A DNA stretch of 17,338 bases from an uncultured archaeon (GTDB taxonomy: Archaea; Asgardarchaeota; Thorarchaeia; Thorarchaeales; Thorarchaeaceae), in NCBI GenBank assembly GCA_964590575.1, contig CAZPWM010000067.1, positions 1 to 17,338 of the forward strand, given 5' to 3'. The position numbers and the translations under genes were made by a program. This document shows positions 1,367 to 17,338 of the stretch, in pieces. Below the pieces are notes generated by a model. It saw nothing but the letters and a program-made list of their open reading frames with translations, ran no database searches and was not told the origin of the DNA. The number at the start of each line of letters is the position of its first letter. Within the stretch, counting starts at the first letter, position 1.

Positions 1367-4300
1367 ATGTCGGATGAAGGGAATTCAGGATTTGGAATAC
1401 TTAGACTTACCAAGTTTCTTATTGCACTACTTGGAACGCTAATTCCCGTTTCTTGCACAGCATGGCTGCTCTTCATAATTCCCTTTGGTTCAGCACAATT
1501 CAAAGGTCAAGCTGTGATTCTTTCTGGTGTCTGTTTCTTTGCAGGATCTTGTGCACTCCTTTTTTCTAAACCTTCCAAAGAGAAGGGGCTTTTATGGTTG
1601 AGTGGTTTTCTTATCACAATTGGAGCAATACTTCTCACTGGTATCCAAGTCATGTACACTTTGGCTCTTGAGTTTCCAGTTGAAACTCTAGCAATCATTG
1701 GTCTTCCAACCACACTTCTGATGATATGGAATCTTCAAAGGAAGTCAGTTGCTGATGAGAATACTCCTGCACAACAAGATACGTTTGGAATCTCTCTTTC
1801 TCGAATGGTCATTAAGAGAGACGTCGTGATTGCAGCTGTTGAACTAACAGAGTTTCCTGAAGAACACTTTCAAAACAAAGACCCTGACCCTTCCAAATAT
1901 CAATCCTTCTTCAACATCCTAAGAGTCATGGTTCTATCTAGTTTTCCGATAGCACTTAGATATGAACGTGTCAGGAAAAAGATGCGAGTGTTATACCTGA
2001 CCTGGGCGCAGAATGATGTCGCGCTCTCTGAATATCTTGAGACCCTCGCAGACACGGTTAAAGGAAACCTCACAGGGTTCAAACAAAAGGTCCACAATCG
2101 GTTTCATGGACCCACCATCAACCCCTTGGCAACTCCGGTGACAACATACCTTCTCGGTGAACCACTCAGTGTGGATGACCCCCGTCAGAGAATAGATGCT
2201 ATCTCTGTCATGGCTGAAGTCCTTCTTGGTTTGCCTGACGGGATTTTTCAGGTGACAGTTATTCCAAGACGGACTAGTAATCGCACCGTGAAATCTCTGG
2301 AACAGCAATACATGGCTGAGAGTGAGAGAGTTCAGTCAACAATAATAAAACCTCGATCTACTCTCCTCTCGGGTGAAATACAAGAGTCTAAGACCAGTAC
2401 AGACATGGGAGCTATCAAGAAAGCCAAGTCGCTGGAGATGCAGATAGAAAGACTGAGTAACAGTCATCTGTGCGAAGTTGAGGTGTCTGCTACATGCTGG
2501 GACCGAGAACCAAAGATTGCTGAGAAACTGTCAAGGAAACTTGCAGGAGTACTTCGGGGTACACTCATTCCTGCAGATCCACAAAATCATCTCTCTATAG
2601 AAACCCAAAAGAACATACATGAAGCTAAGAAGCTGATTGAGGGTGAAACCATCGGGAAGACGACTCTCTTATCCATTGAGGAGGCCAGTGTCTACTTCTC
2701 CCTTGCGCGAAACGACCTAGGCATCTCGGTTGCGGATTATGCATCATTTCGTACCAATCCAACAGACCGACGTAGCATCGAGAACAAGCACAAAGATGAG
2801 GATTCAACTGAAGGGATCAGACTTGGAAAGGTCCTTGATGACTCTGGAACTCCCATTGCTGATTTTGTAATCCCAACTATCGATCTGGCATCGCATAGTG
2901 TGATGGGCGGTGACACAGGCAATGGAAAGTCTGTGACCGAGTCGAACATCACGTTAGAATTACATCGGTTAGGAATCAACTTCACGAAGCTGTTGCTCTC
3001 AAAGAATGAGGACCATCTTCGGTTTCTGCGGAAAGTGAAGAGTATCCTTGTTCTCACTCCAGGCGATGAAACTGTCACTCCTGTCAGATTCTCATTCAGC
3101 GATTTCTGTGAGGGTATGCATGTGAACCATATCATCAATGACACAAAAGCAATCATCATTGCTGCAATGCCTGCTTATGGTATCATCAAGGAGTACATGG
3201 AGAGGGTCATCGAACTCACCTTCGAGAGACTAGGCTGGGACCGTGAGTCCAACATCCCAGGATTGTCCATTGTGCTCTCGGACTTTCTTGAGACCCTGCC
3301 GCTCATCAAGGAGGAGGTCCAGTACAGCACCCGTGGCAACGAAGATGTGTGGGGTGCGCTCTATATCAGGTTCAACAAGCTATGTAGCGGTGTTCTCAAC
3401 AGCGTCTTTGGAACGACCTCAGGAATCACCATGAGAGAACTGACCAAAAAGCCCAGTCTTATTCTGCTATACGCACTATCCAAAGATGAGCAGTCATTCT
3501 TTGTCTTCTGGTTCGTGTCAAGAGTAGCTCGCTACTTTGAGGCAATGAAGAAGATTGAGATGAAGCACAAGAAGGGTCTGAAGTATAACGTGGTCATCGA
3601 GGAGTCCCACAGGATTCTCAAGCTCGAGACCGGTGTCAAGATGGATGAGGAGCACGGTGCGAAACAGGCAGCTGTTGACACGATCACCACCACCATGAAG
3701 GAGTCGAGAAGTTCAGGGGTAGGCTTCACACTCATCGCACCAGGTTTCTCAGAACTCACAAGCAGCGCATATATGATGGCGCTGAACATATTCATGCATG
3801 GGCGAGGCGCAGGAACAGATCGCAGGCTCATCGGTGATCAGATGAACTGTACCGAGGACCAGATTCGAATGATGGGGTCCTTGCCAATTGGCGAGGCTGT
3901 GATCCGTACAGCTAGTATCAGCAGACCAGTGAGGGTGCGGGTCAACGACATTGTCGCACTGTATCCAGAACTGGCTCCTGGGAAACCGGTGACTGATGCT
4001 GAGATCATAGAGCACATGAGACCGGTCTTCGACCAGAGTCCGCATTTCCAGACCAAGTCAAAGTATGCACTGAACTCATTGAGACCAAACGAACTATCTC
4101 TTCAGCTAGCAACAAACAAGATAGACATTACCAGCGCGCTCAGACTCTATGCAATGTTCGATAGTGAGTTGTTCGGGAGAGTCTTGAAAACGCTCTTCGA
4201 GGTCAAGAACCCTCGACTCGGAGCTCTTATCCTACGTAACATTGCGAGGCTTGCAGGACCAGATGATGCTCCTTTGCCATTCTATGCTCATCATCTGGTC

Positions 4301-4870
4301 TGGCGTATCTCAAACCTGGAAGGGTCCAGTATACCACTTCTCGTTGAGATAGCCGAAGAGCTGAGTCATCTTCTGCCGATCAGCGAACTGCCAGCAGATC
4401 ATCTCGGACGGTATCACACAAGACTCAGTCTTGAACTTCAGAAGAGGCTTACCACATTCAAGATTGACACAAAGAAAACCGCATCTGACGTGAAGTCAGC
4501 TGTGAAACTGGCACTTGACGAGAACAAAAGATTCCTGGATTCCAGTGCATCACACGATCAGATAGTAGAGCCTGATGAAGTACTTAAGAAGAAGGTGGGC
4601 GCCATGGTTCGTACTGACCAGTTTGTCAGTAGATACCTGTCATTGTTTCAGATGGCTGCTGAGGGCAACTATGAACCACTAGTACAGCTGATACTAACGT
4701 TTGCCAGACGACTTGATTCACATACTTCTGATACCACTGAGGCAGCCACTCTCCTACTGCATGAGGCAAGAGCAGCTCTGACCTCTCCAGACAATGATGC
4801 ACTGTGGGCCGCAGTGTATGATATGGTCAGGTCTGAAATCAACGACTCGGGGTCTGAAGTTGCCGCATGA
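1367..4870 (+). CDS. Membrane-anchored HerA/FtsK/VirB4-superfamily P-loop ATPase (DUF87-like)
   Basis: About four hydrophobic segments in the first 120 aa; IRLGKV...DLASHSVMG leading into Walker A GDTGNGKS (2909-2932); LGWD helical insert; Walker B VVIEESH (3590-3610); arginine-finger ESRSSG (3701-3718); C-terminal SLPIGEAVI...RPVRVRV typical of HerA-like ATPases. A GGAGG motif precedes the ATG. Confidence 0.85.
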   Translation: MSDEGNSGFGILRLTKFLIALLGTLIPVSCTAWLLFIIPFGSAQFKGQAVILSGVCFFAGSCALLFSKPSKEKGLLWLSGFLITIGAILLTGIQVMYTLALEFPVETLAIIGLPTTLLMIWNLQRKSVADENTPAQQDTFGISLSRMVIKRDVVIAAVELTEFPEEHFQNKDPDPSKYQSFFNILRVMVLSSFPIALRYERVRKKMRVLYLTWAQNDVALSEYLETLADTVKGNLTGFKQKVHNRFHGPTINPLATPVTTYLLGEPLSVDDPRQRIDAISVMAEVLLGLPDGIFQVTVIPRRTSNRTVKSLEQQYMAESERVQSTIIKPRSTLLSGEIQESKTSTDMGAIKKAKSLEMQIERLSNSHLCEVEVSATCWDREPKIAEKLSRKLAGVLRGTLIPADPQNHLSIETQKNIHEAKKLIEGETIGKTTLLSIEEASVYFSLARNDLGISVADYASFRTNPTDRRSIENKHKDEDSTEGIRLGKVLDDSGTPIADFVIPTIDLASHSVMGGDTGNGKSVTESNITLELHRLGINFTKLLLSKNEDHLRFLRKVKSILVLTPGDETVTPVRFSFSDFCEGMHVNHIINDTKAIIIAAMPAYGIIKEYMERVIELTFERLGWDRESNIPGLSIVLSDFLETLPLIKEEVQYSTRGNEDVWGALYIRFNKLCSGVLNSVFGTTSGITMRELTKKPSLILLYALSKDEQSFFVFWFVSRVARYFEAMKKIEMKHKKGLKYNVVIEESHRILKLETGVKMDEEHGAKQAAVDTITTTMKESRSSGVGFTLIAPGFSELTSSAYMMALNIFMHGRGAGTDRRLIGDQMNCTEDQIRMMGSLPIGEAVIRTASISRPVRVRVNDIVALYPELAPGKPVTDAEIIEHMRPVFDQSPHFQTKSKYALNSLRPNELSLQLATNKIDITSALRLYAMFDSELFGRVLKTLFEVKNPRLGALILRNIARLAGPDDAPLPFYAHHLVWRISNLEGSSIPLLVEIAEELSHLLPISELPADHLGRYHTRLSLELQKRLTTFKIDTKKTASDVKSAVKLALDENKRFLDSSASHDQIVEPDEVLKKKVGAMVRTDQFVSRYLSLFQMAAEGNYEPLVQLILTFARRLDSHTSDTTEAATLLLHEARAALTSPDNDALWAAVYDMVRSEINDSGSEVAA

Positions 4871-7800
4871 TTCGTCAGATAATACAGAGCGCCACCCAGA
4901 GAGAGAGTATGATGAGACCCCCAACGAGTCAGAAGGTAGGGAGATTCCTGATGAGATCGAGAAGGCTGCTCAGGATGCCGCAGAAGACTTTGATCGTCAG
5001 CAGGAGATTGAGCAGTCAGCCATTGAGGCTGCTAAGGAGTTCGATGAGTACGACTCACTGCGCAAAGAGATCGAAGACCTTGCTGAGGCGGCCGCAAAAG
5101 AGTTCGATGAACTTCAGCGGGAGAAAGATGAGGTCGCAAAGGAAACCTTTGAGGATGACCTAGAGAATGACCTTGACGAGGTCCGGGATGAACTCCATAA
5201 TGAATATGTCAATGACATGAACCACCAGCTGGAGGGAGTCTCGAGGAAAGACTGTGATGCAGAAGAAGAGAGTGATGAGAGAGCTTCCTCAGAGGCAACG
5301 GAAAGCAGTGAGTCATACGAGGTTACAGATACGGGAATGGTCTATGCAACGGAGGTCAGGAGTGAAACTGAGGGAAAGGCTCAATCTGAGATTGAATCTG
5401 AGAACGAGGCACAGGAACAGACTGAGTCCAGTGAGCCCGTTGATGATGCTGAGGGATTGCCTGATGACCAATTCAGGAACAGAGTCACAAAACAGGAATC
5501 AGAGTATGAACCAGTTGAAACATCACCCTCTGGCTCTCTAGAAGACACGGAGACACAGCGAATCCAGCAACCCGAGTCCAACGAGATGCCAGAGACGCCT
5601 GAGTATGAGACCTCCATCGAGGAAAATGAACATCGCGACCACTCTGAGGTCAAGGAAGAGGAATCCACCGGGTCAACGATTGAAGGTGATGTGGATTCAG
5701 TTGAGGAACCAGAGGTTGAGGCTGAGGTTGAGGACACACTGGAGGTGGAGGAGTCCTCTGAAGATTCGAACGAGATCCCTGAACCTGAGATGGATGGGAG
5801 TGTGTCCGTAACCTCTGAGGTTGAATCATCTGAGACTATGGAGCAGGAAGAGCCCTCTCACAGAGAAGAGGATACGCTTGAGGGTGAATTGGAGGCTGAT
5901 ATTCCGGAGGAGTTCATCGAACGAGTAGAGGAGCTAGTAGAGCAACTCGAGGAGTTGGAAGCTGAGTCTGAGGAACGAGTCATTGTCGAGGCTCTGACTG
6001 GAGAACCTGTGGTCGACAGGACCCTTGAGACACGGTCATTCTTTGGGGAGGATGACGAGGTTGCTGAGGAAGAGGAGGTCCGGAGACGACTGCGTGACCT
6101 CTTCGGCGAGCTCTCGGAGGAGGAGCGTGAGCGGTTCAAGGAGATAGTGCGGTCGCGGTTGAAGTCAGAGGAGGACCTTGAGGAATTCATCCAGCACCAT
6201 CCCTCGATTACACTCAGTTCTGACTTCATGCAAAAATTGAAGGATGCTCGTGCTTATGTAAAGGGTAAGAGGTCTGGCCTAGTCCCCAAGCTCATTCGAG
6301 AGTTATGGGTACTTGAAATTCAACGGGAATGGACCAATGTTGTGGGCGAAGCTGTCAGAAAATCAATTGAACGAAGTCTTGATGCAGCACGAAAAGTAGA
6401 ATCGGTCACGCCCAAACATGCGCGGAAGAAGAAGCGGAAGACGGGCTATCATAAGAAGACGGAGCACTTGATTAAACTCCATAGACCGATGACTGGAAAG
6501 AGGCCCGTCGGGTCGTTCGAGAGATACCGGGAGTGGTTGGAACAGAACTATCCTGCTGTCTGTGAACGGTTAGACTATCCTGAACTATTAGACTCGGTGC
6601 GGAAGTTCTTCGAACTGAGGAAAGCTCTTCGACGTCGTAAAACCATCAAGCATCATGAGCTTGAGGACCTTGCACGTGAACTTGAGATTGCACCTGATAC
6701 AGCAATAGGATGGTTTCTCCATGGTAAGTCTCCACATCTCTTTCAGATCGTGGACTCGGCTCTCTCGATGCGGGATGGGATGCGACTCAAGGCTGCGTTG
6801 CTCAAGAAGCTTGATGGTATTGAGGGGTGGTCAGAGCTAGAACGTCGGTTGAAGCAGGTGTACCCCGGGGAGGCTTACAAGAAGATTGCCAATTACAAGG
6901 ACAAAAAGAGTCGAACCAAGGAGTTCTTCGTCTTTCTGGACTATCTGGAGCGGGGTGGGACCAAGAAGGGCATCGCCAAGTTGTCCGGCATCTCGCAGCG
7001 TCGGGTTCGGGCTTTCTTCGATGGTGAGTTGCCGTGGCTGCTGCGGCATGTGCTGGCGAAGGAGGGACGACTCGCGCCCTCAAAGCGGTACAGCCGTCAT
7101 CTCTCATCTACCCATAGGGTCAAGTTTCGCTCCATCACGGTGCGAGGCAAGGAGATTGGGTCCTACGCGGAGTTCAAGAGGCTGGTGGACCGAGACTTTC
7201 CGTGGCTCAAGGAACGATCGGACTACGCTCGACTCCTTCATGTTGTCAGGGTCTACTTCTTGGCGCGACGCAGGTTTGAGGGGATGAAGTATGCCATCCG
7301 CAATGAGATCGTTGAGTTTGCTGAGAAGCATGACGTTTCATACCAGACGGTCACTGAGTGGCTCGTTGGCAGGTCGTTGCCGATGGTCATCGGGATGCTT
7401 GAGCAGGCACTGTCGGTCACTGAAGCAAAAAAGGAACTAAAGGTGATACTCAAGAAGCTCACTGGAGTGGTTTCGCTCTCGGAGTATCATAAACGTATGA
7501 AAACTCTCTATCAACTAGAGGAATTGAAGGTCCTTCCAAACTACAAAAAGGACTACGAACTTGTCAAGGAGTTCTATCGATTTCTCAGAGCACTTGAGAA
7601 AGGGGGTCTCTATACCGATATTATCAAGCGTGGAAACTTAAGTATGGGATCAACAAAGCGTAGGCGTTTGGATTTTGGATTACCACGTTTGGTCCGTATT
7701 GCCGCATCTATACCATCTCTTCCCCCAAAGAAAGATTGTAAATGGCTTCCTTTGAATGTGACTAAGAAACAAGAGCCGGTTGATTTCATCGAGGCACCCA

Positions 7801-8666
7801 CTAGGATAAGCCATCAAACTGACTTGGAGGGTTTCTTGAGAGGGCTAGTGAGTAAGCAGCGAGAGCTTACTAAGGAAGAATCCGAAACCAATCAGCTAGT
7901 CAATGAATTCATGTATTTGCTCGGACTAATTGCTTCAGATGGGAGTTTTGGAAAAAAGGACGGTTTCTCAAGTCAGGCGCAATTGAAACTTAGTAAGAAA
8001 TATGCTTGGAGCATAAGAGTTGGAACTGCTTTCAGTCAGGCACTCGAACGGTTGGGTATCAAAGTAACACGTGGCAAGGATAGAGAAACACGGACCAAGA
8101 AAGGTACACTTGTAAGACTAATGACTTGGCAAAGTCAAAACAAACCATTATTCCACTGGATGCGTCGCACACTTTTTGGTTTGAAGAGTGGACCTAAGAG
8201 AAGACTAAGAATCGATTGGATTCTATCTCTGTCAATCCGAGAAAGAATTGCTTTCATTCAAGGAATCGCTGATGGTGATGGGCATGCATCTGTGAGGGGT
8301 CTTATAGCTGGCATCGCCACTAAATATAACAAAGAATCACTTAGCAGGATTCTTGCATCACTTGGAATCGAGTCAGCTAATAACTCCAATGGACTAGAGA
8401 TTCGAAAAAAGAAATTTCTGAAAATAGCTTCAGACCTTCCAATGTTCAGACATGCTGATAGTCGTCTCTTTAGGCTTAGAGAAATCTGTGCAATGATTGC
8501 TGCAATGAAACATGCAAAAGTAAGTGATGAAGAACGACAAAAAATACTTGAGTATCATCGACGAGGCTTCAATCCTACTCAGATTGTACCATTACTCTGG
8601 TCCGAATATGGGACTGCCCGTCGTTCTGGCACTATAGAGAAGGCTATCAGCGATGCTGATTTGTAG
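4860..8666 (+). CDS. Giant multidomain protein: acidic N-terminus, tandem HTH-like repeats, double-motif LAGLIDADG endonuclease and C-terminal HTH-like tail
   Basis: The ORF is open 4794-8666; the probable start is TTG at 4860, overlapping the ATPase stop. LAGLIDADG motifs LLGLIASDG (7917-7943) and IQGIADGDG (8256-8282) are 113 codons apart and both retain the catalytic Asp. The first ~420 aa are strongly E/D-rich. No HINT/intein termini are visible. Confidence 0.85.
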   Translation: MPHDSSDNTERHPEREYDETPNESEGREIPDEIEKAAQDAAEDFDRQQEIEQSAIEAAKEFDEYDSLRKEIEDLAEAAAKEFDELQREKDEVAKETFEDDLENDLDEVRDELHNEYVNDMNHQLEGVSRKDCDAEEESDERASSEATESSESYEVTDTGMVYATEVRSETEGKAQSEIESENEAQEQTESSEPVDDAEGLPDDQFRNRVTKQESEYEPVETSPSGSLEDTETQRIQQPESNEMPETPEYETSIEENEHRDHSEVKEEESTGSTIEGDVDSVEEPEVEAEVEDTLEVEESSEDSNEIPEPEMDGSVSVTSEVESSETMEQEEPSHREEDTLEGELEADIPEEFIERVEELVEQLEELEAESEERVIVEALTGEPVVDRTLETRSFFGEDDEVAEEEEVRRRLRDLFGELSEEERERFKEIVRSRLKSEEDLEEFIQHHPSITLSSDFMQKLKDARAYVKGKRSGLVPKLIRELWVLEIQREWTNVVGEAVRKSIERSLDAARKVESVTPKHARKKKRKTGYHKKTEHLIKLHRPMTGKRPVGSFERYREWLEQNYPAVCERLDYPELLDSVRKFFELRKALRRRKTIKHHELEDLARELEIAPDTAIGWFLHGKSPHLFQIVDSALSMRDGMRLKAALLKKLDGIEGWSELERRLKQVYPGEAYKKIANYKDKKSRTKEFFVFLDYLERGGTKKGIAKLSGISQRRVRAFFDGELPWLLRHVLAKEGRLAPSKRYSRHLSSTHRVKFRSITVRGKEIGSYAEFKRLVDRDFPWLKERSDYARLLHVVRVYFLARRRFEGMKYAIRNEIVEFAEKHDVSYQTVTEWLVGRSLPMVIGMLEQALSVTEAKKELKVILKKLTGVVSLSEYHKRMKTLYQLEELKVLPNYKKDYELVKEFYRFLRALEKGGLYTDIIKRGNLSMGSTKRRRLDFGLPRLVRIAASIPSLPPKKDCKWLPLNVTKKQEPVDFIEAPTRISHQTDLEGFLRGLVSKQRELTKEESETNQLVNEFMYLLGLIASDGSFGKKDGFSSQAQLKLSKKYAWSIRVGTAFSQALERLGIKVTRGKDRETRTKKGTLVRLMTWQSQNKPLFHWMRRTLFGLKSGPKRRLRIDWILSLSIRERIAFIQGIADGDGHASVRGLIAGIATKYNKESLSRILASLGIESANNSNGLEIRKKKFLKIASDLPMFRHADSRLFRLREICAMIAAMKHAKVSDEERQKILEYHRRGFNPTQIVPLLWSEYGTARRSGTIEKAISDADL
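4953..5111 (+). repeat. Three tandem peptide repeats EIExxAxxAAx(E/D)FD
   Basis: EIEKAAQDAAEDFD (4953), EIEQSAIEAAKEFDE (5004) and EIEDLAEAAAKEFDE (5067). Confidence 0.7.
6507..7703 (+). repeat. Internal ~216-aa tandem duplication, each half made of two ~100-aa HTH-containing units
   Basis: VGSFERYREWLEQNYP...DYPELL...ALS...LKKLDG...NYK...KEFFVFL...LERGG...LPWL aligns with IGSYAEFKRLVDRDFP...DYARLL...ALS...LKKLTG...NYKK...KEFYRFL...LEKGG...LPRL. The period is 648-651 nt. Confidence 0.8.
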
Positions 8667-8757: not shown

Positions 8758-10311
8758 ATGACTGATTCTAAGGACAAATTTGAGGAACTCTCAAGACTCA
8801 GAGAGGAATCAAAGCTTGGCGGTGGAGAAGAACGAATCAAGAAAGAGCATGAAAAAGGACGACTTACTGCGAGAGAACGTCTTGATAAGCTTCTTGATCC
8901 AGAGTCATTTGTTGAGATTGATGAGTTCGTCGTCCATCGAGAAACAGGATTTGGTTTGGAAGATCAGAAGATTCTCGGCGATGGTGTTGTTACTGGTTTT
9001 GGCACCATAAATGGTCGTAAGGTATTCATCTTCAGCCAAGACTTCACTGTATGGGGTGGTTCGCTTTCTGAGATGTATGGGGGTAAAATGGTTAAGATAA
9101 TGGAATTTGCAATGGAAACGGGTGCTCCAATAATCGGGATCAATTCCGGAGCCGGCGCACGGTTATATGAAGGAATCCGCTCACTCGTCAGTTACGCGAA
9201 CGTGTTCAAACTCAACACCCTCGCGAGCGGAGTCATCCCGCAGATATCGGCGATAATGGGTCCGTGCGCAGGCGGAGCGGTGTACAGCCCCGCAGTGACG
9301 GACTTTACGATAATGGTGAAAGGAACTTCCCAGATGTATATCACTGGTCCAGATGTTATCAAAACGGTCACAGGCGAGGAGGTCACCCACGAGGAGCTGG
9401 GTGGAGCAATGACCCATAACTCACTGAGTGGCGTTGCCCAATTTGCCAGCGAAGATGAGGACCACTGCTTCGAACAGATAAAGACACTTCTCAGTTACAT
9501 GCCTCAGAATAATCTCGAGGACCCCCCAAGGATTGACACTGGTCATGCCCCTAACGATGTCGACGAGTCAATTGATGAGTTCATACCTGATGATCCGAAT
9601 AAACCGTACGATATGCGCGAAGTAGTGAAACTGCTTGTTGATAATGGTGAGTTCTTCGAAGTGCATGAACACTGGGCAAAGAACATGCTAGTCGGATTTG
9701 CTCGATTTGATGGACGTTCAGTGGGAATTGTGGGGAATAATCCAGCTCACCTTGCAGGAACCCTCGATATCAACGCTTCAGACAAGTGTGCTCGGTTCGT
9801 CAGATTCTGTGATGCGTTCAATATTCCAATTGTTACATTCATGGATGTACCCGGATATCTCCCCGGAACCACTCAGGAATGGGGCGGCATCATCCGACAT
9901 GGAGCAAAGATTCTCTATGCATTTGCAGAGGCAACCGTGCCGATGATCACAATTGTCACTCGTAAGGGCTATGGTGGCGCCTTTGACGTCATGGCATCAA
10001 AGCATATCGGGGCGGACCTCGTCTACGCCTGGCCCACTGCTGAGATTGCAGTAATGGGTCCGGATGGAGCGATTAACATCATCTTCCGGAAGGAGATCGA
10101 GGCTGCGAAGGACAAGGAGAAGAAGCGGGCACAGCTTGTCAAGGAGTATCGAGAGAAGTTTGCGAACCCCTATGTCGCGGCTGGGCTCGGATACATTGAC
10201 AAGGTCATCTTCCCGCGAGAAACACGACCACTAATTTGTAGTGGTCTGGAGATGTTGGAGAGCAAGAGGAAGACAAGACCCCCTAAGAAGCATGGGAATA
10301 TTCCTCTATAA
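8758..10311 (+). CDS. pccB: Acyl-CoA carboxylase carboxyltransferase (beta) subunit, PccB / methylmalonyl-CoA decarboxylase alpha family
   Basis: 517 aa with family motifs GRLTARERL..LLDP, GDGVVTG.G.INGR, QDFTV.GGS, ASGVIPQISAIMGPCAGGAVYSPA.TDF, RFVRFCDAFNIP, GGIIRHGAK, AWPTAEIAVMG and C-terminal KKHGNIPL. Confidence 0.93.
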   Translation: MTDSKDKFEELSRLREESKLGGGEERIKKEHEKGRLTARERLDKLLDPESFVEIDEFVVHRETGFGLEDQKILGDGVVTGFGTINGRKVFIFSQDFTVWGGSLSEMYGGKMVKIMEFAMETGAPIIGINSGAGARLYEGIRSLVSYANVFKLNTLASGVIPQISAIMGPCAGGAVYSPAVTDFTIMVKGTSQMYITGPDVIKTVTGEEVTHEELGGAMTHNSLSGVAQFASEDEDHCFEQIKTLLSYMPQNNLEDPPRIDTGHAPNDVDESIDEFIPDDPNKPYDMREVVKLLVDNGEFFEVHEHWAKNMLVGFARFDGRSVGIVGNNPAHLAGTLDINASDKCARFVRFCDAFNIPIVTFMDVPGYLPGTTQEWGGIIRHGAKILYAFAEATVPMITIVTRKGYGGAFDVMASKHIGADLVYAWPTAEIAVMGPDGAINIIFRKEIEAAKDKEKKRAQLVKEYREKFANPYVAAGLGYIDKVIFPRETRPLICSGLEMLESKRKTRPPKKHGNIPL

Positions 10312-10532
10312 GATTGGTTTCCAGTACGGACTATGGTTTTTTGGAGTTCAAACATATTCACTCCGTTTCCGCCAAGATGAAGGTCCTACTTACTCATCGA
10401 AAGGTCGATCTATCTCAGGAGCACCTGCTACCCTCATCAACGAAATACTGACTGGGACAATTATACTTTAAAACAACGGACTTTCTTAAAGAAACTCAGA
10501 TTCTCAAAAAATGAATTACTAAGGTTACGACA

Positions 10533-10922
10533 ATGATTATTCCCATTTTCTTAGGGGTACTATGTTCGAGATATTCAGACACTAAACGATCTGCACTGAT
10601 TGTGGCTGCAGGAATCGGATTCTTGATTGGTATCATTTCAGGACTACACATATTGCCACTTGCATATCCACTCTATGCAATAGTCACTCACACAACTCAT
10701 ACCTCTTATGGTCTGTTCTACAACATTGAAGCCTATCTGTTTTACAGTGGTTGGAGGATTTGGAGTGGCGGAGTGATCGATCTCATCTGGCTCTCGCCAC
10801 TAATTCCACTACTCTTCATACCTACAGGTGCGATTGGCTGTCTTCTTGGAGTTTACTTTTCGTGGAGTCGCGTTCACAGGTTTCCAACTGAAGTTTGGCC
10901 CCAAGAGAAACCAGACCGTTGA
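10533..10922 (+). CDS. Small hypothetical membrane protein (cargo of cassette 1)
   Basis: 129 aa with several hydrophobic segments (SALIVAAGIGFLIGIISGL; LIWLSPLIPLLFIPTGAIGCLLGVYF). Its last ~7 codons and stop are read out of frame from pccB tip copy 2. Confidence 0.65.
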   Translation: MIIPIFLGVLCSRYSDTKRSALIVAAGIGFLIGIISGLHILPLAYPLYAIVTHTTHTSYGLFYNIEAYLFYSGWRIWSGGVIDLIWLSPLIPLLFIPTGAIGCLLGVYFSWSRVHRFPTEVWPQEKPDR

Positions 10923-10999
10923 TATGCAGTGGTCTAGAGATGCTGGAGCGCAAGAGAAAAACACGACCCCCAAAGAAGCACGGGAATATTCCTCTGTGA
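10901..10999 (+). pseudogene. pccB 3'-end fragment, copy 2 (32 codons plus stop)
   Basis: Encodes PRETRPLICSGLEMLERKRKTRPPKKHGNIPL*, versus PRETRPLICSGLEMLESKRKTRPPKKHGNIPL* at 10213-10311. By hand count there are 19 nt differences in 99, and only one changes an amino acid. Confidence 0.95.
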
Positions 11000-11264
11000 A
11001 CCACATCTCTTCTCAGTTGATTCAAGATAGCATTGAGTCTATTGAACGGAATAACTTATCTAGACACCCAACTAAACATATGTTGAATGGGATTACTGCT
11101 ACTATTTTGATTTAATTTTAAACTAGACAACAATCAGAAGGATAGCAATCACGACTATCGCGGAAACCACTTTCAGGATTTGCTTATCACTGCAGAACAG
11201 CATGATAATAATATTAAAGACCAATTCCTTGATTAATACAAGATGAGTGAACTAGGTGAGCACT

Positions 11265-11570
11265 ATGAGAATTGAGATCAATATGCCATCAAAGAAACAG
11301 CTAGCGGATTTTTCCAAGCTTTATAACATCCGAAAACTCGCTCTTTTTGGTTCTGTCCTTCGTGATGATTTTGGTCCGGACAGCGATATCGATGTTCTCG
11401 TAGAATTCGATCCTAAGCATATTCCAGGTTTTTTTGAATTAATGCAGATGGAAGAAGAGCTCTCCATCCTTTTTGGCAGGTCAGTAGACTTGCGAACTCC
11501 TCGGGACTTAAGCAGGTACTTTCGTGAAGAAGTGATAGCGACGGCGGAGGTCCAATATCTTGCGCCCTGA
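11265..11570 (+). CDS. Minimal nucleotidyltransferase (MNT), MntA-type antitoxin
   Basis: LALFGSVLRDDFGPDSDIDVLVEF (GS...DxD) and EEELSILFGRSVDL. An AGGTGA SD at 11254-11259 favours ATG 11265 over GTG 11256. Confidence 0.92.
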   Translation: MRIEINMPSKKQLADFSKLYNIRKLALFGSVLRDDFGPDSDIDVLVEFDPKHIPGFFELMQMEEELSILFGRSVDLRTPRDLSRYFREEVIATAEVQYLAP

Positions 11571-11910
11571 TGAAATCAGGCTTCGTCATATGCTTGATGC
11601 AATCCGCGAAGCACTTTCATTCACGGGTGACAAGACTCGTGAAGATATAGAATCCAATCGAATACTTAGTCTTGCACTAGTTCAGCTTCTTGAGATAATT
11701 GGAGAAGCAGCAAATGGTATAACAATTGAATTTCGTCATAGTCATCCAGAAGTACCTTGGGACTCCATGATTAGAATGCGTCATAGATTAATCCATGGCT
11801 ATTTCGATGTGGATTTAGACATTGTTTGGCAGACGATCGTTGCAGACTTGCCGCCACTGCTAGGGCGGCTGGAAGTCATTGTGAATAATATCGAAAAACA
11901 CCATAAATGA
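11560..11910 (+). CDS. HEPN (DUF86, HepT-like) ribonuclease toxin
   Basis: LEIIGEAA...HPEVPW...MRHRLIHGYFDVDLDIVW (Rx4HxY motif). The TTG start overlaps the MNT stop, the classic MNT-HEPN arrangement. Confidence 0.92.
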   Translation: MRPDEIRLRHMLDAIREALSFTGDKTREDIESNRILSLALVQLLEIIGEAANGITIEFRHSHPEVPWDSMIRMRHRLIHGYFDVDLDIVWQTIVADLPPLLGRLEVIVNNIEKHHK

Positions 11911-11912
11911 GG

Positions 11913-12158
11913 GGGGTTGTCAACATCTCCATCCAGAATGAGAACAAGACTGCAAAGGACAAGGAGAAGAAACGGGCTGAGCTTGTGAAAGATTAATGTG
12001 AAAAGTTTACGAATCCCTACATTGCAGCTGTACTAGGGTACATTGACAAGGTGATCTTCCCCCGAGAAACGAAACCGCTAATTTGTAGTGGTCTGGAGAT
12101 GCTGGAGAGCAAGAGGAAGTCGCGACCTCCAAAGAAACACGGAAATATTCCATTATGA
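11913..12158 (+). pseudogene. pccB 3'-end fragment, copy 3 (81 codons plus stop, with an internal stop)
   Basis: Colinear without indels with 10066-10311: GVVNISIQNENKTAKDKEKKRAELVKD*CEKFTNPYIAAVLGYIDKVIFPRETKPLICSGLEMLESKRKSRPPKKHGNIPL*. The premature TAA is at 11994-11996. Confidence 0.95.
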
Positions 12159-12691
12159 TTCTCAAATAATACTGAGGTCAAACTACGCTTTTCTACTCAA
12201 GAAAATCACCTCTTCGATTTGCAGGTCAGAATCCCTCTCCTTCTGGTATCCATCTTGGAACAATCATTGGACTAAGAAGTAGTCCATCTGATAGGAACGG
12301 GCAAGAATTAGATCGCATCGATGCAATGGCAGATACGAATTGAAGATGTACAAAGAAGACTCATTACATCATACTAGCTTCTTCTAGGTGGGACTGGAAC
12401 TAGTGATTGATGAAATGGTTGCTATGCTTCCTCTCACAACTGATCCATGGATGGGGTGAAACATTGCCTAAGGCACGGGAAATGATGATTTTAAAAAGTG
12501 CATCATCTGTTCTGCCAAGTTTCATCACGGTTCTTGACGTAGAGGGATACTACTTAGGTGCAGTCATAGAGTTTGAGAAGCCGTTAAGGCAATCATGGTG
12601 CGAATTGGCCAATCCAAGCATATGGGAAAGCGAGCAATTGAGATGGCAAACTAGCGGTTTACAGGCATCATGCGGGGAGGGAAGGCTCTAG

Positions 12692-14209
12692 ATGTCGACA
12701 CATCTTATAACAGCCAAGCAGCTCTTGTACGTAATCGTGTCAATTCTCATTGGAATTGCCCTCTACATTGCAAGTCGCTATAGCTACCTGCTTTTCCATA
12801 GTGTTGTTGAGGAATTCAGCATTCTTGTTGCGTTTGGAGTATTTCTCGTTGGATGGTACTCTATCAAATACACTGAGAACAGAGCTTTCCTCATTTTGGG
12901 AATTGCTTTCTTCTTTATTGGTTGGATCGACTTTTTTCACACTCTTGCTTACCCAGGTATGGGCGTCTTTCCTGGATCTGATACTAATCTCGCTGCACAA
13001 CTATGGATTGTAGCTCGATACTTGGAGAGCATTACGCTTCTCATCGCTCCGTTGGCTATACGAAGAAGTATCAACAGGACCTATGTAGCAGTTGCGTACT
13101 CTGTCATTTCTGGTCTTCTACTAGGAACGATTTTCGTCTGGCGTGTGTTCCCAGTCTGCTTCATTGAGGGTGTTGGCCTCACCCCATTCAAAATCATCAG
13201 TGAATACATCATCTCAGCCATCTTGGTCATGAGTGGTTTCCTGTTCTACAACAGAAGAAGCAAGTTCGACTCCTCTACCATACGACTCCTGATCATCGCA
13301 GTCAGTTTCACAATAGCTTCTGAACTCGCTTTTACGCTCTATACTGATGCCTACGGCATTGCTAACGCGGTAGGGCACTATTTTAAGATAATCGCTTTCT
13401 ACTTCATCTACCAAGCAATTATTCAAGCGAGCCTAGTCCGGCCATATGACACTCTATTCAAAGACCTGAAGCAATCAAGAGAAATGGAAGCTACACATGC
13501 CACTCAACTTGAAGCACTTAACAAGGAGTTGGAGTCTTTCTCTTACTCGGTATCACACGACCTGCGAGCCCCTCTAAGAACTGTGGATGGATTCAGCGTC
13601 GCCTTGGAAAAAAGCTCTGCAGATCGACTTGATGACGTTGGTCGACACTACTTGAATCGTATCAGAGCAGGATGTCAACGGATGAGTGACCTCATTGATG
13701 CGCTCCTGCAATTATCACGATTATCCAGAACCCAGCTCCAGCGAACTACTGTGAGTTTGACCGCTATAGCACGCGAGATCCTTAACACACTGGCTCAGAC
13801 ATCACCGGAGCGCAACGTAGCGTCTATAATAGCAGATGGAATGACTGTCAAAGCAGATGAACATCTACTGCATATAGCAATGACCAATCTACTTGAGAAT
13901 GCTTGGAAATTCACTAGATCCCATTCGAAAGCGAGGATTGAGGTGGGAAAAGCCACACAGGAAGGTCGAGAGGTATTTTTCGTACGCGATGATGGTGTTG
14001 GTTTTGACATGAAATATGCTGACAAGATATTCGTTCCATTTCAACGCTTTCATTCACATAAGGAATTCGAGGGGTCTGGAATAGGCTTGGCCACGGTTCA
14101 GAGGATTATCTCGCGTCATGGCGGCCAGGTTTGGGCTGAAAGCACCCCTGAACAAGGAACGACTTTCTACTTCACACTTGGGCCGAAGGAAACGAACATC
14201 AATCAATGA
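12692..14209 (+). CDS. Membrane sensor histidine kinase, MASE3-type sensor plus HisKA and HATPase (Cph1/BphP-like kinase core)
   Basis: MASE3-like SYLLFHSVVE...DFFHTLAYPGMGVF...NLAAQLWIVARY...GLTPFKIISEY...SELAFTLY; H-box SYSVSHDLRAPLR; N-box NLLENAWKF; G1 VRDDGVGFDM; G2 GSGIGLA. Confidence 0.92.
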   Translation: MSTHLITAKQLLYVIVSILIGIALYIASRYSYLLFHSVVEEFSILVAFGVFLVGWYSIKYTENRAFLILGIAFFFIGWIDFFHTLAYPGMGVFPGSDTNLAAQLWIVARYLESITLLIAPLAIRRSINRTYVAVAYSVISGLLLGTIFVWRVFPVCFIEGVGLTPFKIISEYIISAILVMSGFLFYNRRSKFDSSTIRLLIIAVSFTIASELAFTLYTDAYGIANAVGHYFKIIAFYFIYQAIIQASLVRPYDTLFKDLKQSREMEATHATQLEALNKELESFSYSVSHDLRAPLRTVDGFSVALEKSSADRLDDVGRHYLNRIRAGCQRMSDLIDALLQLSRLSRTQLQRTTVSLTAIAREILNTLAQTSPERNVASIIADGMTVKADEHLLHIAMTNLLENAWKFTRSHSKARIEVGKATQEGREVFFVRDDGVGFDMKYADKIFVPFQRFHSHKEFEGSGIGLATVQRIISRHGGQVWAESTPEQGTTFYFTLGPKETNINQ

Positions 14210-14438
14210 TGACCAAAAGGTGTTATCTGGGTTGAACTCTCTCTTCAATCGCATAAGTGTTATGATGGCTGATTCGAATAAGGAAACATCTGCTGATTGC
14301 AGTATATTCGACGTTCTATTTTTTTCCAAGAACTCAGTAGAAATTAGTTTTGAATTATGGGATGTAACCGAGATACATTCTTTAGTATACAGTGGATAGA
14401 AGAACAAACCGTGCGGAGCTATTGCTGGCGCTTACATA

Positions 14439-15965
14439 ATGCCTGCAAAAACGCTTGGGGACTACACTTTGACGGGCTCACCGGTAACCAATACTACTGA
14501 TGCAGAGGATGTATCCGTAGTAACTCGCGTTGTGCGAGCAATAGACAGAGTGCTACAAGACACGCTGGACTGCAATAATGCAAGTGTTGTTGCCCAGCTA
14601 TGCTATTCGATATCTCGAGAATTGGTTGGTAATTCACCTGGTCATTTCTGCGACTTGGCTGTTGATGGAACTGAGTGCACGCTTGCCAATTGCGAATTAT
14701 GCGTAAGAGCCGCAAGAGAATCAGGAATAGAGAATGCAATGCTCGCAGAAGACGATATGGCTGAGGATAGCTGCTTTACCTCTATGCTGAGAGGTAAGTG
14801 CAATGTTTCGAATTGCACGATGCCGTGTTTCACTCTATACAAGGATCTTATCCTCAACATAATCGATGGTCTCGCTTATCACAGAATCATCAGAGACGAC
14901 AACGGCAATGCAGTGGACCTTGAGTTCACAGATGTCAATCCTGCATTTGAAACGATAACTGGAATAAAACGTGAGGTTGCTGCAGGCCGAAGAATTACTG
15001 AGTTTCTCCCCAAAATCAAAGAAGATCCGTTTGACTGGATTGGTTTCTATGGAGAAGTGGCTCAATCTGGGAAGCCGGTGACCATTGAGCAATACTCGCA
15101 TGCGCTCTCGCGCTGGTATCAAGTCCATTTGTGCCCTAAAGACCAAGATCATCTGATTGCCATCTTTTTTGATGTAACGAAGTTGAAGGAAACCGAACAA
15201 GAGCTGAGGTCTCTGAATGAACAACTAGAGCAACGAATAGAGGAAAAGACACGGCAGTTGAAGACCATAAATAACGAGCTTGACTCCTTTGCATACTCAA
15301 TTTCTCACGACCTACGTGCTCCACTTCGAGCGGTTGATGGCTTTAGTAGAGCGTTGCTAGAAACATACTCAGACAAACTCGACGAGAAAGGTCAACACTA
15401 TCTCGAAAGAATGCGGCTTGGCGCAAGTCGAATGGGTAAACTGATTGACAATCTTCTTAGACTATCAAGGATATCACGACGTTCATTGAACCTTAAGGAG
15501 GTAGATCTAAGCGTTCTAGTTCAGGAGATTATTACTGAGCTAAAGGAGAGAGATCCTGAGCGGTGCGTGGAGCTTCTTGTTCCTGAGACTCTAAATGCAT
15601 ATGCTGACGCATGGCTAATGAAAATAGTCTTGACAAACCTTTTGGATATTGCATGGAAATTCACTAGACTGAAGCAGACTGCTATAATTGAGATATCGAT
15701 TACGCTGGATAAGGGAAACCGCGTCTTCTATGTGAAAGACAATGGCATCGGTTTTGATATGCGGCATTCAGACAGTGTATTTGCTCCCTTTCAGAGGCTT
15801 CACTCAACGAATGAGTTTGAAGGGACTGAAATTGGCTTGGCCATAGTTCAGAGGATAATTCATAGGCATGGGGGTAGAATATGGGTTCAGAGCTCACCCG
15901 ATGAGGGTACCACATTCTATTTCACATTGAAGAAGGGTGATACAGGAATTGACTCAAGTGAATAA
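14439..15965 (+). CDS. Cytoplasmic PAS histidine kinase-like protein with a Cys-rich N-terminus and a degenerate ATP-binding domain
   Basis: PAS segment DGLAYHRII...FTDVNPAFETITG...FFDVT; coiled coil; H-box AYSISHDLRAPLR. The N-box reads NLLDIAWKF and G2 reads GTEIGLA. Confidence 0.88.
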   Translation: MPAKTLGDYTLTGSPVTNTTDAEDVSVVTRVVRAIDRVLQDTLDCNNASVVAQLCYSISRELVGNSPGHFCDLAVDGTECTLANCELCVRAARESGIENAMLAEDDMAEDSCFTSMLRGKCNVSNCTMPCFTLYKDLILNIIDGLAYHRIIRDDNGNAVDLEFTDVNPAFETITGIKREVAAGRRITEFLPKIKEDPFDWIGFYGEVAQSGKPVTIEQYSHALSRWYQVHLCPKDQDHLIAIFFDVTKLKETEQELRSLNEQLEQRIEEKTRQLKTINNELDSFAYSISHDLRAPLRAVDGFSRALLETYSDKLDEKGQHYLERMRLGASRMGKLIDNLLRLSRISRRSLNLKEVDLSVLVQEIITELKERDPERCVELLVPETLNAYADAWLMKIVLTNLLDIAWKFTRLKQTAIIEISITLDKGNRVFYVKDNGIGFDMRHSDSVFAPFQRLHSTNEFEGTEIGLAIVQRIIHRHGGRIWVQSSPDEGTTFYFTLKKGDTGIDSSE

Positions 15966-16386
15966 AACAATCCTACTGGTAGAAGATGATCCGGATGACG
16001 CAGAACTGGCAATCATGGCCTTGAGCGAAAGCAGGCTTGTCAATGAAATCAAGCATGTTTGGGATGGTGAAGAAGCGCTTCAGTTCTTACGGGATGAATC
16101 TCAGCAATCGCTCCCTCAGCTTATCCTCTTAGATCTCAAGCTGCCCAAGGTTAGCGGACTAGAAGTCTTGAAGCAAATTAGGTCAAGTCCTAGAACAAAC
16201 AGACTGCCAGTTGTCATATTGACTTCTTCTGATGAAGATCAAGACATTGCAGCGTGTTATGACTCGGGAGTCAATAGCTATATCCGGAAACCCATTGACT
16301 TCGATCAGTTCACTGAATGTGTGAAGCAGCTGGGCCTCTACTGGTTAGTTCTGAACATGAGGCCTCCTGAAAAACGAGGTGAGTGA
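15937..16386 (+). CDS. Single-domain response regulator (Rcp1-like receiver); true start probably TTG 15949 or GTG 15958
   Basis: ILLVEDD, phospho-acceptor LILLDLKLPKVSG, LTSS, YIRKP and C-terminal YWL. It overlaps the upstream kinase. Confidence 0.92.
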   Translation: MIQELTQVNKTILLVEDDPDDAELAIMALSESRLVNEIKHVWDGEEALQFLRDESQQSLPQLILLDLKLPKVSGLEVLKQIRSSPRTNRLPVVILTSSDEDQDIAACYDSGVNSYIRKPIDFDQFTECVKQLGLYWLVLNMRPPEKRGE

Positions 16387-16389
16387 GCA

Positions 16390-17338
16390 ATGCCTGATCT
16401 GAGTGTCCTTATAGTTGAAGATTCGGAGGATGATACTGAACTCATAGTTCTTGAGCTTCAGCGAGAGGGGTATGATATTCAGTATCAGCAGATCACATCC
16501 AAAGAAGAAATGCTTGCAGCTATGCATTCTATCCTTTTTGACGTAGTACTCTGTGATTACAAGATGCCGAACTTCAATGGATTGGAGGCACTTAAAGTAT
16601 GGAAAGAACTTGGCTCTCTGCAGCCATTCATAATTGTGTCAGGGACTATTGGCGAAGAAGCAGCAGTTGAAGCGTTAAAGATGGGCGCCAATGATTATGT
16701 CATGAAAGATAACATTGTCAAACTGGGTTCAGCTGTAGACCGTGCCCTCCGAGAAATGGAGGAAACTCGAAAGAGGATTGAAGCAGAACAGGCTCTGATG
16801 GAGAGTGAACAACAGTATAGAACTCTCCTCTCAAACCTGCCAAGTGCTGTCTATAGATGCAAAATGGATGAGGCTTGGACGATGTTGTTTCTCAGCGAGG
16901 CTATCGAAGACATTGTAGGTTACAAAGCTGAGGATTTCATTGGGAACAAAGTTCGTACATATATGAGCTTGATATTTCCCGACGACCGCGAACAAGTCCG
17001 AATGGAGGTCGAGAAAGCTGTCAAGAATAAAACTACTTTCATGATTGAGTATCGAGTGCACCATTCTAATGGTGAAATAAAATGGATAAAGGAAAAGGGT
17101 GTTGGTATTTGGGATGATAGCGAAAATCTATCTTATATAGATGGAGTACTTGAGGATATTACTCCTCGGAAAGAGATGGAGGGGGTACTCATACGTCGGG
17201 AAGAGTGGTTTCGAGCCATCTTTGATGAGTCGCCCATCGCCATCAACGTGTTCGACAAGAATGGTGAGATGGTCCTGGCAAATCGTGCGTGCCTGGACAT
17301 GTTTGGGGTGAAGGCGACCTCTGACTTTCAGGGGCTCA
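16390..17338 (+). CDS. REC-PAS-PAS signal transduction protein, 3'-truncated by the window edge
   Basis: Not in the ORF track; hand translation from ATG 16390 after a GAGGTGA SD: MPDLSVLIVEDSEDD...VLCDYKMPNFNG...IIVSGTIGEE...DYVMKD (receiver); YRTLLSNLPSAVYRC...IFPDD...EYRV...EDITPRK (PAS/PAC); FRAIFDESPIAINVFD (second PAS). It is open to the edge. Confidence 0.92.
   Translation, partial: MPDLSVLIVEDSEDDTELIVLELQREGYDIQYQQITSKEEMLAAMHSILFDVVLCDYKMPNFNGLEALKVWKELGSLQPFIIVSGTIGEEAAVEALKMGANDYVMKDNIVKLGSAVDRALREMEETRKRIEAEQALMESEQQYRTLLSNLPSAVYRCKMDEAWTMLFLSEAIEDIVGYKAEDFIGNKVRTYMSLIFPDDREQVRMEVEKAVKNKTTFMIEYRVHHSNGEIKWIKEKGVGIWDDSENLSYIDGVLEDITPRKEMEGVLIRREEWFRAIFDESPIAINVFDKNGEMVLANRACLDMFGVKATSDFQGL

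Follow-up and report, generated by a model that had tools for sequence, protein, structure and literature searches.

How can the last codons of a single housekeeping gene come to stand three times in a row, in the same orientation, with genes of unrelated function in between? This question is raised by pccB, a carboxyl transferase gene, in a 17,338-nucleotide (nt) stretch of DNA, hereafter the window, from an uncultured archaeon of the Thorarchaeaceae. The window is an entire contig (CAZPWM010000067.1) of the metagenome-assembled genome (MAG) GCA_964590575.1, which amounts to 3.4 Mb in 194 contigs, is 91% complete and is called G000 below; other genomes, contigs and loci are likewise designated by G, C and L numbers. 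A preliminary description, made from the letters of the window, had noticed the repeated gene ends and proposed a gene-capture array. Our analysis leads us to view the locus as a stack of swapped gene tails made by homing-like tail swapping, a reading to which we give a probability of about one half.

The pccB stack and its counterparts

The working pccB gene lies at positions 8758-10311 on the plus strand, as do all tails and cargo genes of the window described below. It encodes a protein of 517 amino acids (aa) that matches PF01039 across its full length (E 3e-195) and has its best named counterpart, at 78% identity, in a Thorarchaeota MAG. The gene aligns without gaps to 25 of the 26 pccB genes of relatives, full or cut by a contig end. 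Behind it, the repeat finder, a reading in the pccB frame and Pfam agree on what the preliminary description had seen, namely three direct pccB 3' ends with cargo between them. According to the repeat finder, a 100-nt repeat occurs in three direct copies (10212-10311, 10900-10999 and 12059-12158; 80-81% identical) and a 235-nt repeat in two (10075-10309 and 11922-12156; 80% identical). The current tail of the working gene, which is the part repeated further down (10066-10311, repeat families D1 and D2), was probably imported by the latest unit. The second copy (10900-10999), a displaced tail, consists of 32 codons and a stop and is 81% identical to the working gene at the nucleotide level. It shows 17 synonymous differences versus a single non-synonymous one; as first noticed, the protein that it encodes is nearly unchanged. 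The third copy (11913-12158), also displaced and delimited both by the repeat finder and by alignment in the pccB frame, is the oldest tail of the stack. It spans 82 codons, of which the first 13 are strongly altered, contains an in-frame TAA at 11994-11996 and retains 78% protein identity to PccB, the proportions of differing synonymous (pS) and non-synonymous (pN) sites being 0.62 and 0.06, respectively. The two displaced tails have unequal 5' limits, equivalent to ~10213 for copy 2 and ~10066-10075 for copy 3, in agreement with those initially given.

The cargo of the first unit is a captured fragment of a membrane-protein gene (10471-10899), made of its upstream region and of an open reading frame (ORF) at 10533-10922. 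It is 83-85% identical in DNA to a membrane-protein gene located elsewhere in the genomes of two relatives (G016:C227 and G027:C26). The ORF encodes 129 aa that match no Pfam family and has orthologues with 87% and 77% aa identity in two relatives. It has lost its own last two codons and reads into copy 2. Since the homology ends at 10898-10904, two codons before the gene's own end, the join between this cargo and copy 2 is illegitimate. In G027, the membrane-protein gene is an insert between two genes that lie 38 nt apart in G000:C66; it is followed by a short copy of the last codons of the upstream gene and then by the native flank. Bounded in this way by codons of the upstream gene, the G027 insert indicates that the same cargo occurs in tail-bounded units at different host genes. 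Between the pccB stop codon and the captured fragment lies a spacer (10312-10470), of which the part 10330-10439 is 74% identical to DNA located 3' of pccB in G027 (G027:C215:16205-16313); the match between the window and L040 extends to 10439. The second unit encodes an MNT-type nucleotidyltransferase, the antitoxin-type partner (11256-11570; PF01909, E 9.5e-15), and a HEPN/HepT RNase, the toxin-type partner (11560-11910; PF01934, E 4e-24). The two ORFs are adjacent with an 11-nt overlap, and 11256-11910 is a predicted MNT-HEPN toxin-antitoxin pair. The DNA beyond the last tail (12159-12406) is presumed, from the stack model, to be the original downstream flank of pccB and is common to no relative compared.

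A stack of similar pieces in a MAG of 194 contigs might be an artefact of chimeric assembly, against which the preliminary description had cautioned. Independently built contigs from public sequencing runs span every junction of the stack. Record 1 of X1 covers 9500-11480, record 9 of X2 covers 10703-12274 and record 3 of X1 covers 11759-12900, the last two with 0 differences. In addition, X6, a run from another study, contains 11650-11951 and 12075-12225, again with 0 differences. The best-matching run may be the source sample of the window itself; the junctions are spanned by contigs from several runs and two studies. Runs X1-X5, in which the sequence is present, come from salt-marsh populations. 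Moreover, arrays with identical cassettes in identical order recur across the genomes of different species, and the copies differ by about 20% and consequently have no long k-mers in common, which further disfavours a chimera. We attach practically no weight to this explanation. No excised form of a unit was found among the public-run contigs, which are unable to reveal rare ones. One X6 contig joins a piece resembling copy 3 (12053-12115), 16 other letters and a piece resembling the working tail (10285-10304) to unrelated sequence; it is probably a pccB tail of a relative with other cargo.

Stacks of this kind are found behind pccB in many relatives. The last 81 residues of PccB were searched against 61 genomes and the retrieved loci were then analyzed by tblastn. 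Counts for the genus refer to a set of 28 genomes, G000 included, which are species representatives and mostly draft MAGs. Thirteen of these carry 5'-truncated pccB tails behind pccB, every one of them in direct orientation and reaching the stop codon. The 5' limits of these tails range from codon 140 to codon 498 and their lengths from 16 to 378 codons. Both the number of tails (0 to 6 per locus among relatives) and the cargo are variable, as the preliminary description had expected of an array. For instance, G001 has one full pccB and six tails, one of them of 368 codons, within ~26 kb, where contigs C10 and C4 are linked by an overlap of 55 identical bases. The youngest unit of this genome encodes a subtilase, an HTH protein, an unknown protein and a nucleotidyltransferase. 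Depending on the genome, the cargo includes HicAB, three VapBC, VapB-like/Fic-Doc, AbiEi/AbiEii, a catalase, NosD-type beta-helix proteins, an ABC transporter and unknown proteins. With the MNT-HEPN pair of the window counted, toxin-antitoxin pairs in pccB cargo number seven. Cassette blocks are common to several species in a different order, blocks A and B being swapped between G006 and G019. Furthermore, the identity of pccB tails declines with distance from the gene. No empty-site counterpart of the window locus was found among the species representatives, which have no common flanks. In metagenomes, a scan with a pccB-tail pattern gave 80 loci, of which one, with a single copy, comes from this group, the rest being unrelated PccB genes.

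A non-coding element of 56-113 nt was also noticed that is 97-100% identical between species whose genes are ~75-80% identical. It was located at L040:15506-15618, L035:10992-11073, L042:4607-4677, L049:3134-3246 and G000:C30:15539-15594, and lies close to pccB tails in three relatives. Part of it resembles a CRISPR repeat (GTTTTCG...GAAAC); Rfam gave no match.

Tails are carried by many other genes as well. Self-comparison of G000, followed by a scan of both ends of its 2443 ORFs, revealed that 8 genes are followed by C-terminal tails in direct orientation, 10 in all: two each for nrdD and pccB and one each for methylmalonyl-CoA mutase, an aminotransferase, a DUF35-type gene and three others. 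The homology always ends at the stop codon. By comparison with these 10 tails, one clear duplication of a 5' head was detected. At this site (G000:C47), the first 88 codons of a gene encoding 406 aa (4244-5464) are duplicated, from the ATG, 3.7 kb upstream (319-582; 72% aa identity), and a gene encoding 1080 aa lies on the other strand between the head copy and the gene. For nrdD, at least two matches were obtained in 17 of the 28 genus genomes, and one array, that of G015, has as many as seven tails. The nrdD units measure 0.5-2.2 kb, apart from a few larger ones, and most of them contain a single gene, oriented either way. A search within the family found nrdD tails in three other genera. 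Across all host genes, tail lengths range from 5 to 378 codons. Insertions at stop codons also happen without tail duplication: after the nrdD stop of G000 (C44), ~4 kb encoding an ABC ATPase and unknown proteins stand where G016 (C32) has 64 nt, and no tail copy is present (L137, L176).

Foreign tails, chimeric tails and renewed gene ends

Judged by their pattern of substitutions and their phylogeny, the tails are foreign functional alleles. Relative to their own working gene, they are near saturation at synonymous sites (pS 0.5-0.79), with a pN of 0.014-0.13 in nine of 11 comparisons and of ~0.27 in two short distal tails. The ratio of non-synonymous to synonymous substitution rates (dN/dS) is 0.03-0.07 across most tails measured, one G001 tail (L035:17882) being excluded from these comparisons. 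Tails of 330, 200 and 170 codons contain no stop. Similarly, in 35 nrdD tails, between 48 and 7 nt before the stop, codon positions 1 and 2 match the gene consensus at 0.86-1.00 versus 0.11-0.83 for position 3. Since the differences are overwhelmingly synonymous and the long tails are free of stops, the tail lineages evolved under protein-level selection. In trees, from which G028 was omitted owing to its gapped alignment, the 335-codon tail of G015 groups with the G020 gene as its sister (99/85), whereas the working gene of G015 has the G024 gene as sister in each of the two segments tested. The tails of G022 and G005 likewise group apart from their own genes, in other clades.

The gene and tails of G001 form one clade, as would be expected if the 3' end had been duplicated locally in tandem and had then diverged in place. 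Such an origin is contradicted by the predominance of synonymous differences, by the lack of stops in long tails and by the grouping of the tails of G015, G022 and G005 with genes of other species. Target-site or local duplication was accordingly rejected on the pattern of synonymous differences, and we hold divergence in place to be extremely improbable. The early proposal that the extra tips come from functional, diverged alleles holds for copy 2, on which it rested, as well as for tails with a dN/dS of 0.03-0.07 and for long tails in foreign clades.

Moreover, displaced tails in which a switch point could be placed are chimeras. The long tail of G015 is G020-like (0.80-0.93) up to ~codon 477 and G024-like from there on, which makes it a displaced fragment that ends in the previous native tail. 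In nrdD, the tails of G002 and G004 that stand behind the same cassette are identical at 46 of 47 positions up to the AATCC motif and at 30 of 43 beyond it (hand count). More generally, the left part of nrdD tails goes with the upstream cargo and their 3' part with the cargo that follows. Because tails are chimeras, a unit consists of a new tail, cargo and the left part of the next tail, and its point of entry is the working gene. The preliminary description had assumed units of cargo plus tip within a capture array that restores the C-terminus at each entry; the composition of the unit has to be revised, whereas the renewal of the C-terminus is seen in the identity drops of G015 and G000 relative to G024. 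A model in which the displaced end would be all native, after one-sided anchoring by homology, was discarded for the long tails, as these are foreign over most of their length.

These drops were found by comparing pccB identity profiles. The working genes of G015 and G024 are 0.93-0.99 identical to ~codon 450 and 0.76 identical in the last 35 codons. Among 325 gene pairs, the pccB genes of G000 and of its closest relative, again G024, are identical at 0.85 over codons 330-460, 0.72 over codons 461-480 and 0.66 over codons 481-517. Close pairs without proximal tails (G017-G007, G027-G009 and G016-G018) show no such decrease at the 3' end. In tail-bearing close pairs, which are few, the similarity of working genes is lost only over the last 35-55 codons. 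The same is observed for nrdD between G017 and G026, whose identity falls from 0.95 over the body to 0.73/0.82 over the tail. The nrdD arrays are also polar. Distal cassettes are common to several species (F3 in four genomes and F2 in six) and proximal ones differ, and distal tails accumulate stops and amino-acid changes.

How the units may have entered

Homing-like tail swapping would account for these stacks in the following way. By analogy with the WHO elements of yeasts and the mORFs of fungal mitochondria, the process would most likely start with a site-specific double-strand break in an allele without the unit. A foreign unit would bring a pccB tail recoded at synonymous sites, then cargo, then a second piece of pccB as the right-hand homology arm, and would be copied into the last 20-60 codons of pccB by homologous recombination of the break-repair type. 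Each event would leave an intact gene with a new tail and push the previous tail and the older units downstream, so that the unit adjoining the gene would be the youngest. As the cassettes have no nuclease, the units would be non-autonomous. Foreign functional tails, reciprocal chimeras, chimeric nrdD tails and polarity are all predicted by the models published for WHO elements and mORFs. What we infer are the break, the enzyme responsible for it and the passage of DNA between cells.

At pccB, the candidate for the break-making enzyme is encoded directly upstream, on the same strand, by a gene (4794-8666) that ends 92 nt before pccB. Its 1290-aa product has a putative single-chain LAGLIDADG module at the C-terminus. 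It matches the Pfam family LAGLIDADG_3 (PF14528) with 33.2 bits versus a cut-off of 22.5, and each of its two LAGLIDADG motifs has an Asp that is invariant in six homologues. For the last 509 residues, a predicted model of moderate quality (mean local confidence, pLDDT, of 72) has its best PDB matches in chains of I-DmoI, with a template-modelling (TM) score of 0.5-0.59 normalised to the target and a probability of 1.00. The protein has no sequence match in PDB and no NCBIfam name. The preliminary description was right in that no integrase is in view in the window; it had not mentioned this homing-type gene. Homologues are present in 15 of the 28 genus genomes, with up to nine per genome. They are located 5' of pccB in only three: intact in G000, decayed in G001 (47% identical, with two stops, directly 5' of pccB) and in G004 (72% identical remnant, also directly 5' of pccB).

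The LAGLIDADG gene overlaps by 77 nt an ORF for a 1167-aa protein, with which it forms a two-gene module (1367-8666). A paralogue of this module (G000:C8:6209-12856) is located 5' of the genes for ribosomal protein L44e and eIF2-alpha. The 1167-aa protein matches no Pfam family and has a weak NCBIfam match, far below the cut-off, to the C-terminus of CedD, a DNA-translocating ATPase (E 3.8e-7). A free-standing 279-aa LAGLIDADG gene of G000 (C73) was also considered and set aside: no tails were seen in its surroundings on this contig, which ends after another 0.5 kb.

Several observations weigh against tail swapping started by such an enzyme. The giant LAGLIDADG gene stands upstream of pccB and not between the gene and a tail, G004 has no tail although it is one of the three genomes with this gene at pccB, and no homologue of it occurs on the contigs that carry nrdD arrays. 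No nuclease family was found in the cassettes, either in the two units of the window or in the 92, 89 and 70 array ORFs scanned for pccB, for other G000 genes and for nrdD, respectively; a second scan of 43 family-less ORFs, at E up to 1, found no LAGLIDADG domain in the 41 that belong to cassettes. Furthermore, the 5' limits of the tails are widely variable, crossover points could be placed in few cases only, and neither the donor nor the switch point of the two tails of the window could be placed. The illegitimate join at 10899/10900 is unexplained by homing alone. Finally, no presence/absence of units within a species was seen among the genomes, which represent one species each.

Some of these observations would fit a stack of the same kind built without any dedicated nuclease. 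Small fragments of a foreign tail with its neighbouring DNA, circularised or ends-in, would integrate by ordinary homologous recombination of the Campbell type, and units flanked by short or diverged tails would persist instead of being looped out again. The many unrelated target genes, tails of anything from 5 to 378 codons, the mirrored 5' head of G000:C47, the illegitimate joins between cargo and tail and the lack of a nuclease in the cassettes are all consistent with this mechanism. It accounts less well for the position of the switch points: those that could be placed are near the 3' end (at ~codon 477 of the 335-codon tail of G015, and 16-17 codons before the stop in nrdD) despite up to 1 kb of homology. 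Nor does it explain why there are ~10 tails versus one head. In addition, the donors are 20-25% diverged, which would make them poor substrates for unassisted recombination. We regard ordinary recombination as a possible, though not a likely, origin of the stacks.

Elements that integrate into protein genes can carry a replacement 3' end, such as phage 21 and e14 in icd or ICESt1/3 in fda. Viruses or plasmids that bore an integrase and then decayed might leave a series of tails if they had integrated at an att site within the pccB 3' end and piled up there by tandem accretion. Tyrosine recombinases exist in the genus, since PF00589 matches 9 of the 28 genomes, mostly on short contigs; PF00239 matches 8. 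The arrays themselves yielded no trace of such enzymes. No integrase family was detected in the 15 ORFs of the window scanned with Pfam and no tRNA gene in the window; integrase and transposase families are likewise missing from the 92, 89 and 70 array ORFs, and no integrase or fragment of one was found in more than 60 units of ~27 arrays. PF00589 has 0 matches in G000 (91% complete), with a response in 14 of 14 control genomes. Neither PF00589 nor PF00239 was detected in 17 of the 28 genus genomes, which are drafts and of which 14 have arrays. PF00589, a family that would include the XerA-type chromosome resolvase, was undetected in 19 of the 28. Moreover, most units hold a single gene and tails reach 1.1 kb. 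No att-like flanking repeats were found on the eight integrase contigs of relatives, most of which are too short to judge, and degenerate patterns of nrdD and pccB tails had 0 exact matches in 2.9 million viral contigs. An integrase does not explain the fragments, in keeping with the preliminary description, and we consider decayed integrative elements very unlikely.

An integron-like process, in which an unrecognised site-specific recombinase acting in trans would insert small circular cassettes at a core site in the tails, deserves somewhat more attention. It would suit the one-gene cassettes of 0.5-2 kb, found in either orientation, and the position of cassette boundaries within the repeat. 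Many nrdD tails begin exactly at AATCCTGC. Where most tails begin, the working nrdD 3' ends of 11 genus genomes (L137, L173-L185) have near-fixed third positions: CCT in 10 of 11 (TCT in the eleventh), AAG in all 11 and CAG in 10 of 11. As CCT accounts for 32% of Pro codons in G000, this pattern points to a constraint on the level of DNA or RNA. The motif AAGAA[AG]CA (Lys-Lys-Gln/His) is common to the tails of pccB (window ~10283-10295), nrdD (G000:C44) and the aminotransferase (G000:C16); it was noticed post hoc and occurs in the last 100 nt of 42 of the 2443 ORFs. Against this process, no recombinase is conserved, both known families being undetected in 17 of the 28 genomes, and the tails have no uniform 5' limit. 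Distal tails gather stops and amino-acid changes and are therefore not maintained sites. Inverted repeats are no commoner than in other gene ends, arms of at least 6 being present in two of the 8 tail-bearing genes versus 12% of the 2443 ORF ends. An inverted repeat with 8-bp arms in the pccB tail of the window was tried as recombination core and rejected, as it is not conserved in relatives. Hairpin, inverted-repeat and Rfam checks, the last with 0 matches in the window and four loci, revealed no attC-type structured site between cassettes; no dedicated attC finder was run. Overall, an integron-like origin seems unlikely to us.

Returning to tail swapping, a wider version of it can be formulated, which we put forward tentatively and consider doubtful. 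In Thorarchaeia, the 3' ends of many housekeeping genes would be gene-capture platforms, served in trans by host-resident giant LAGLIDADG nucleases, as MAT is by HO, and nuclease-less cassettes would be loaded onto them by break repair. If so, archaea would have a counterpart of the integron that works without a recombinase, and prokaryotes a relative of WHO/HO; its cassettes would carry defence, surface and metabolic genes, and the recoded tail and the tail fragment would act as homology arms. If tail swapping as such holds, Asgard archaea of this family would gain accessory genes, among them those for enzymes, surface proteins and toxin-antitoxin pairs, by rewriting the ends of essential genes, with dozens of sites used and no integrase or transposase involved. 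This would explain part of their large, mosaic genomes. The 3' parts of the marker genes pccB and nrdD would be recombinant, which matters for phylogeny, and the stacks could be read as an ordered record of past gene transfers.

Elsewhere in the window, the region 3' of the stack (12692-17337) is a signalling cluster that encodes two histidine kinases, one with MASE3 and one with PAS, as well as a receiver protein and a receiver-PAS protein. A 14-nt word (GATTCTCAAAAAAT / GATTCTCAAATAAT) is present both 5' of the captured membrane-protein gene (10499-10512) and directly 3' of the last tail (12157-12170). The word could be a promoter-like box, or the match could be due to chance.

Comparison with known systems

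A narrow search of the full-text literature found no description of such stacks in archaea. Among known systems, integrons, which reportedly include archaeal ones, resemble them in their arrays of mostly one-gene cassettes, in their toxin-antitoxin cassettes, in boundaries that lie inside the repeat and in insertion at one end, with older cassettes distal. They differ in that no IntI, attI or attC was found here, that the repeats are coding tails of a host gene which decay after displacement, and that there are many loci per genome. Tandem accretion is also known for integrative elements and integrase-less cis-mobilizable elements (CIMEs) at 3' ends such as that of fda, and arrays of tRNA fragments are known from tycheposon islands. 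There too, repeated 3' ends of the target gene bound cargo that lacks an integrase. However, these systems rest on a tyrosine recombinase and a fixed att core, whereas no such recombinase was detected here and the repeats range from 5 to 378 codons. For Asgard archaea, the mobile elements reported in one paper carry an integrase and have an 11-bp att site.

C-terminal displacement arrays of Rhs, contact-dependent inhibition (CDI) and type VI secretion system (T6SS) effector loci resemble the stacks in their layout. According to Kirchberger et al. 2017 (PMC5361080), a new module that enters at a conserved gene pushes older 3' pieces and their partner genes downstream without any integrase, and homology-based entry with an illegitimate end has been proposed. 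In those loci, the incoming end is another toxin domain with its immunity gene, and the protein changes. In contrast, the tail in the window encodes the same PccB C-terminus, with a single change among 32 residues, and the cargo has no relation to pccB.

The mORFs of fungal mitochondria, found in atp6, atp9, cox2 and nad3, offer a parallel in sequence. In Beaudet et al. 2013 (PMC3630166), where the atp6 case of Allomyces is cited, a foreign C-terminus replaces the native one, which is kept downstream as a duplicate. The copies of the C-terminus are 64-81% identical in DNA and encode nearly the same protein. Unlike the units described here, mORFs are single insertions in organelle genomes that have their own nuclease and are often in frame with the host gene, and they form no stacks of cargo cassettes.

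Clusters are known from yeasts of the genera Torulaspora and Lachancea, in which WHO elements are directed at the FBA1 3' end (Coughlan et al. 2020, PMC7282813). There, a housekeeping gene is followed by cargo interspersed with its own 5'-truncated 3'-end fragments. The working gene is chimeric, with a native 5' part and a foreign 3' part: FBA1 alleles are 99% identical upstream of the cut site and 85% downstream, to be compared with 0.92-0.99 and 0.76-0.78 here. Likewise, trees of the 5' and 3' parts are discordant, the newest unit adjoins the gene while older ones decay, and the downstream fragment acts as second homology arm. Each WHO unit encodes a LAGLIDADG-type nuclease of its own, whereas none of the cassettes found here does; their cargo consists of ordinary accessory genes and toxin-antitoxin pairs, and the only LAGLIDADG gene lies upstream of the target. 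In addition, there are many target genes per genome here and the host is an archaeon without meiosis. The lack of a nuclease in the cassettes is hence the defining difference; in their anatomy and sequence signatures, the stacks match the WHO and mORF models.

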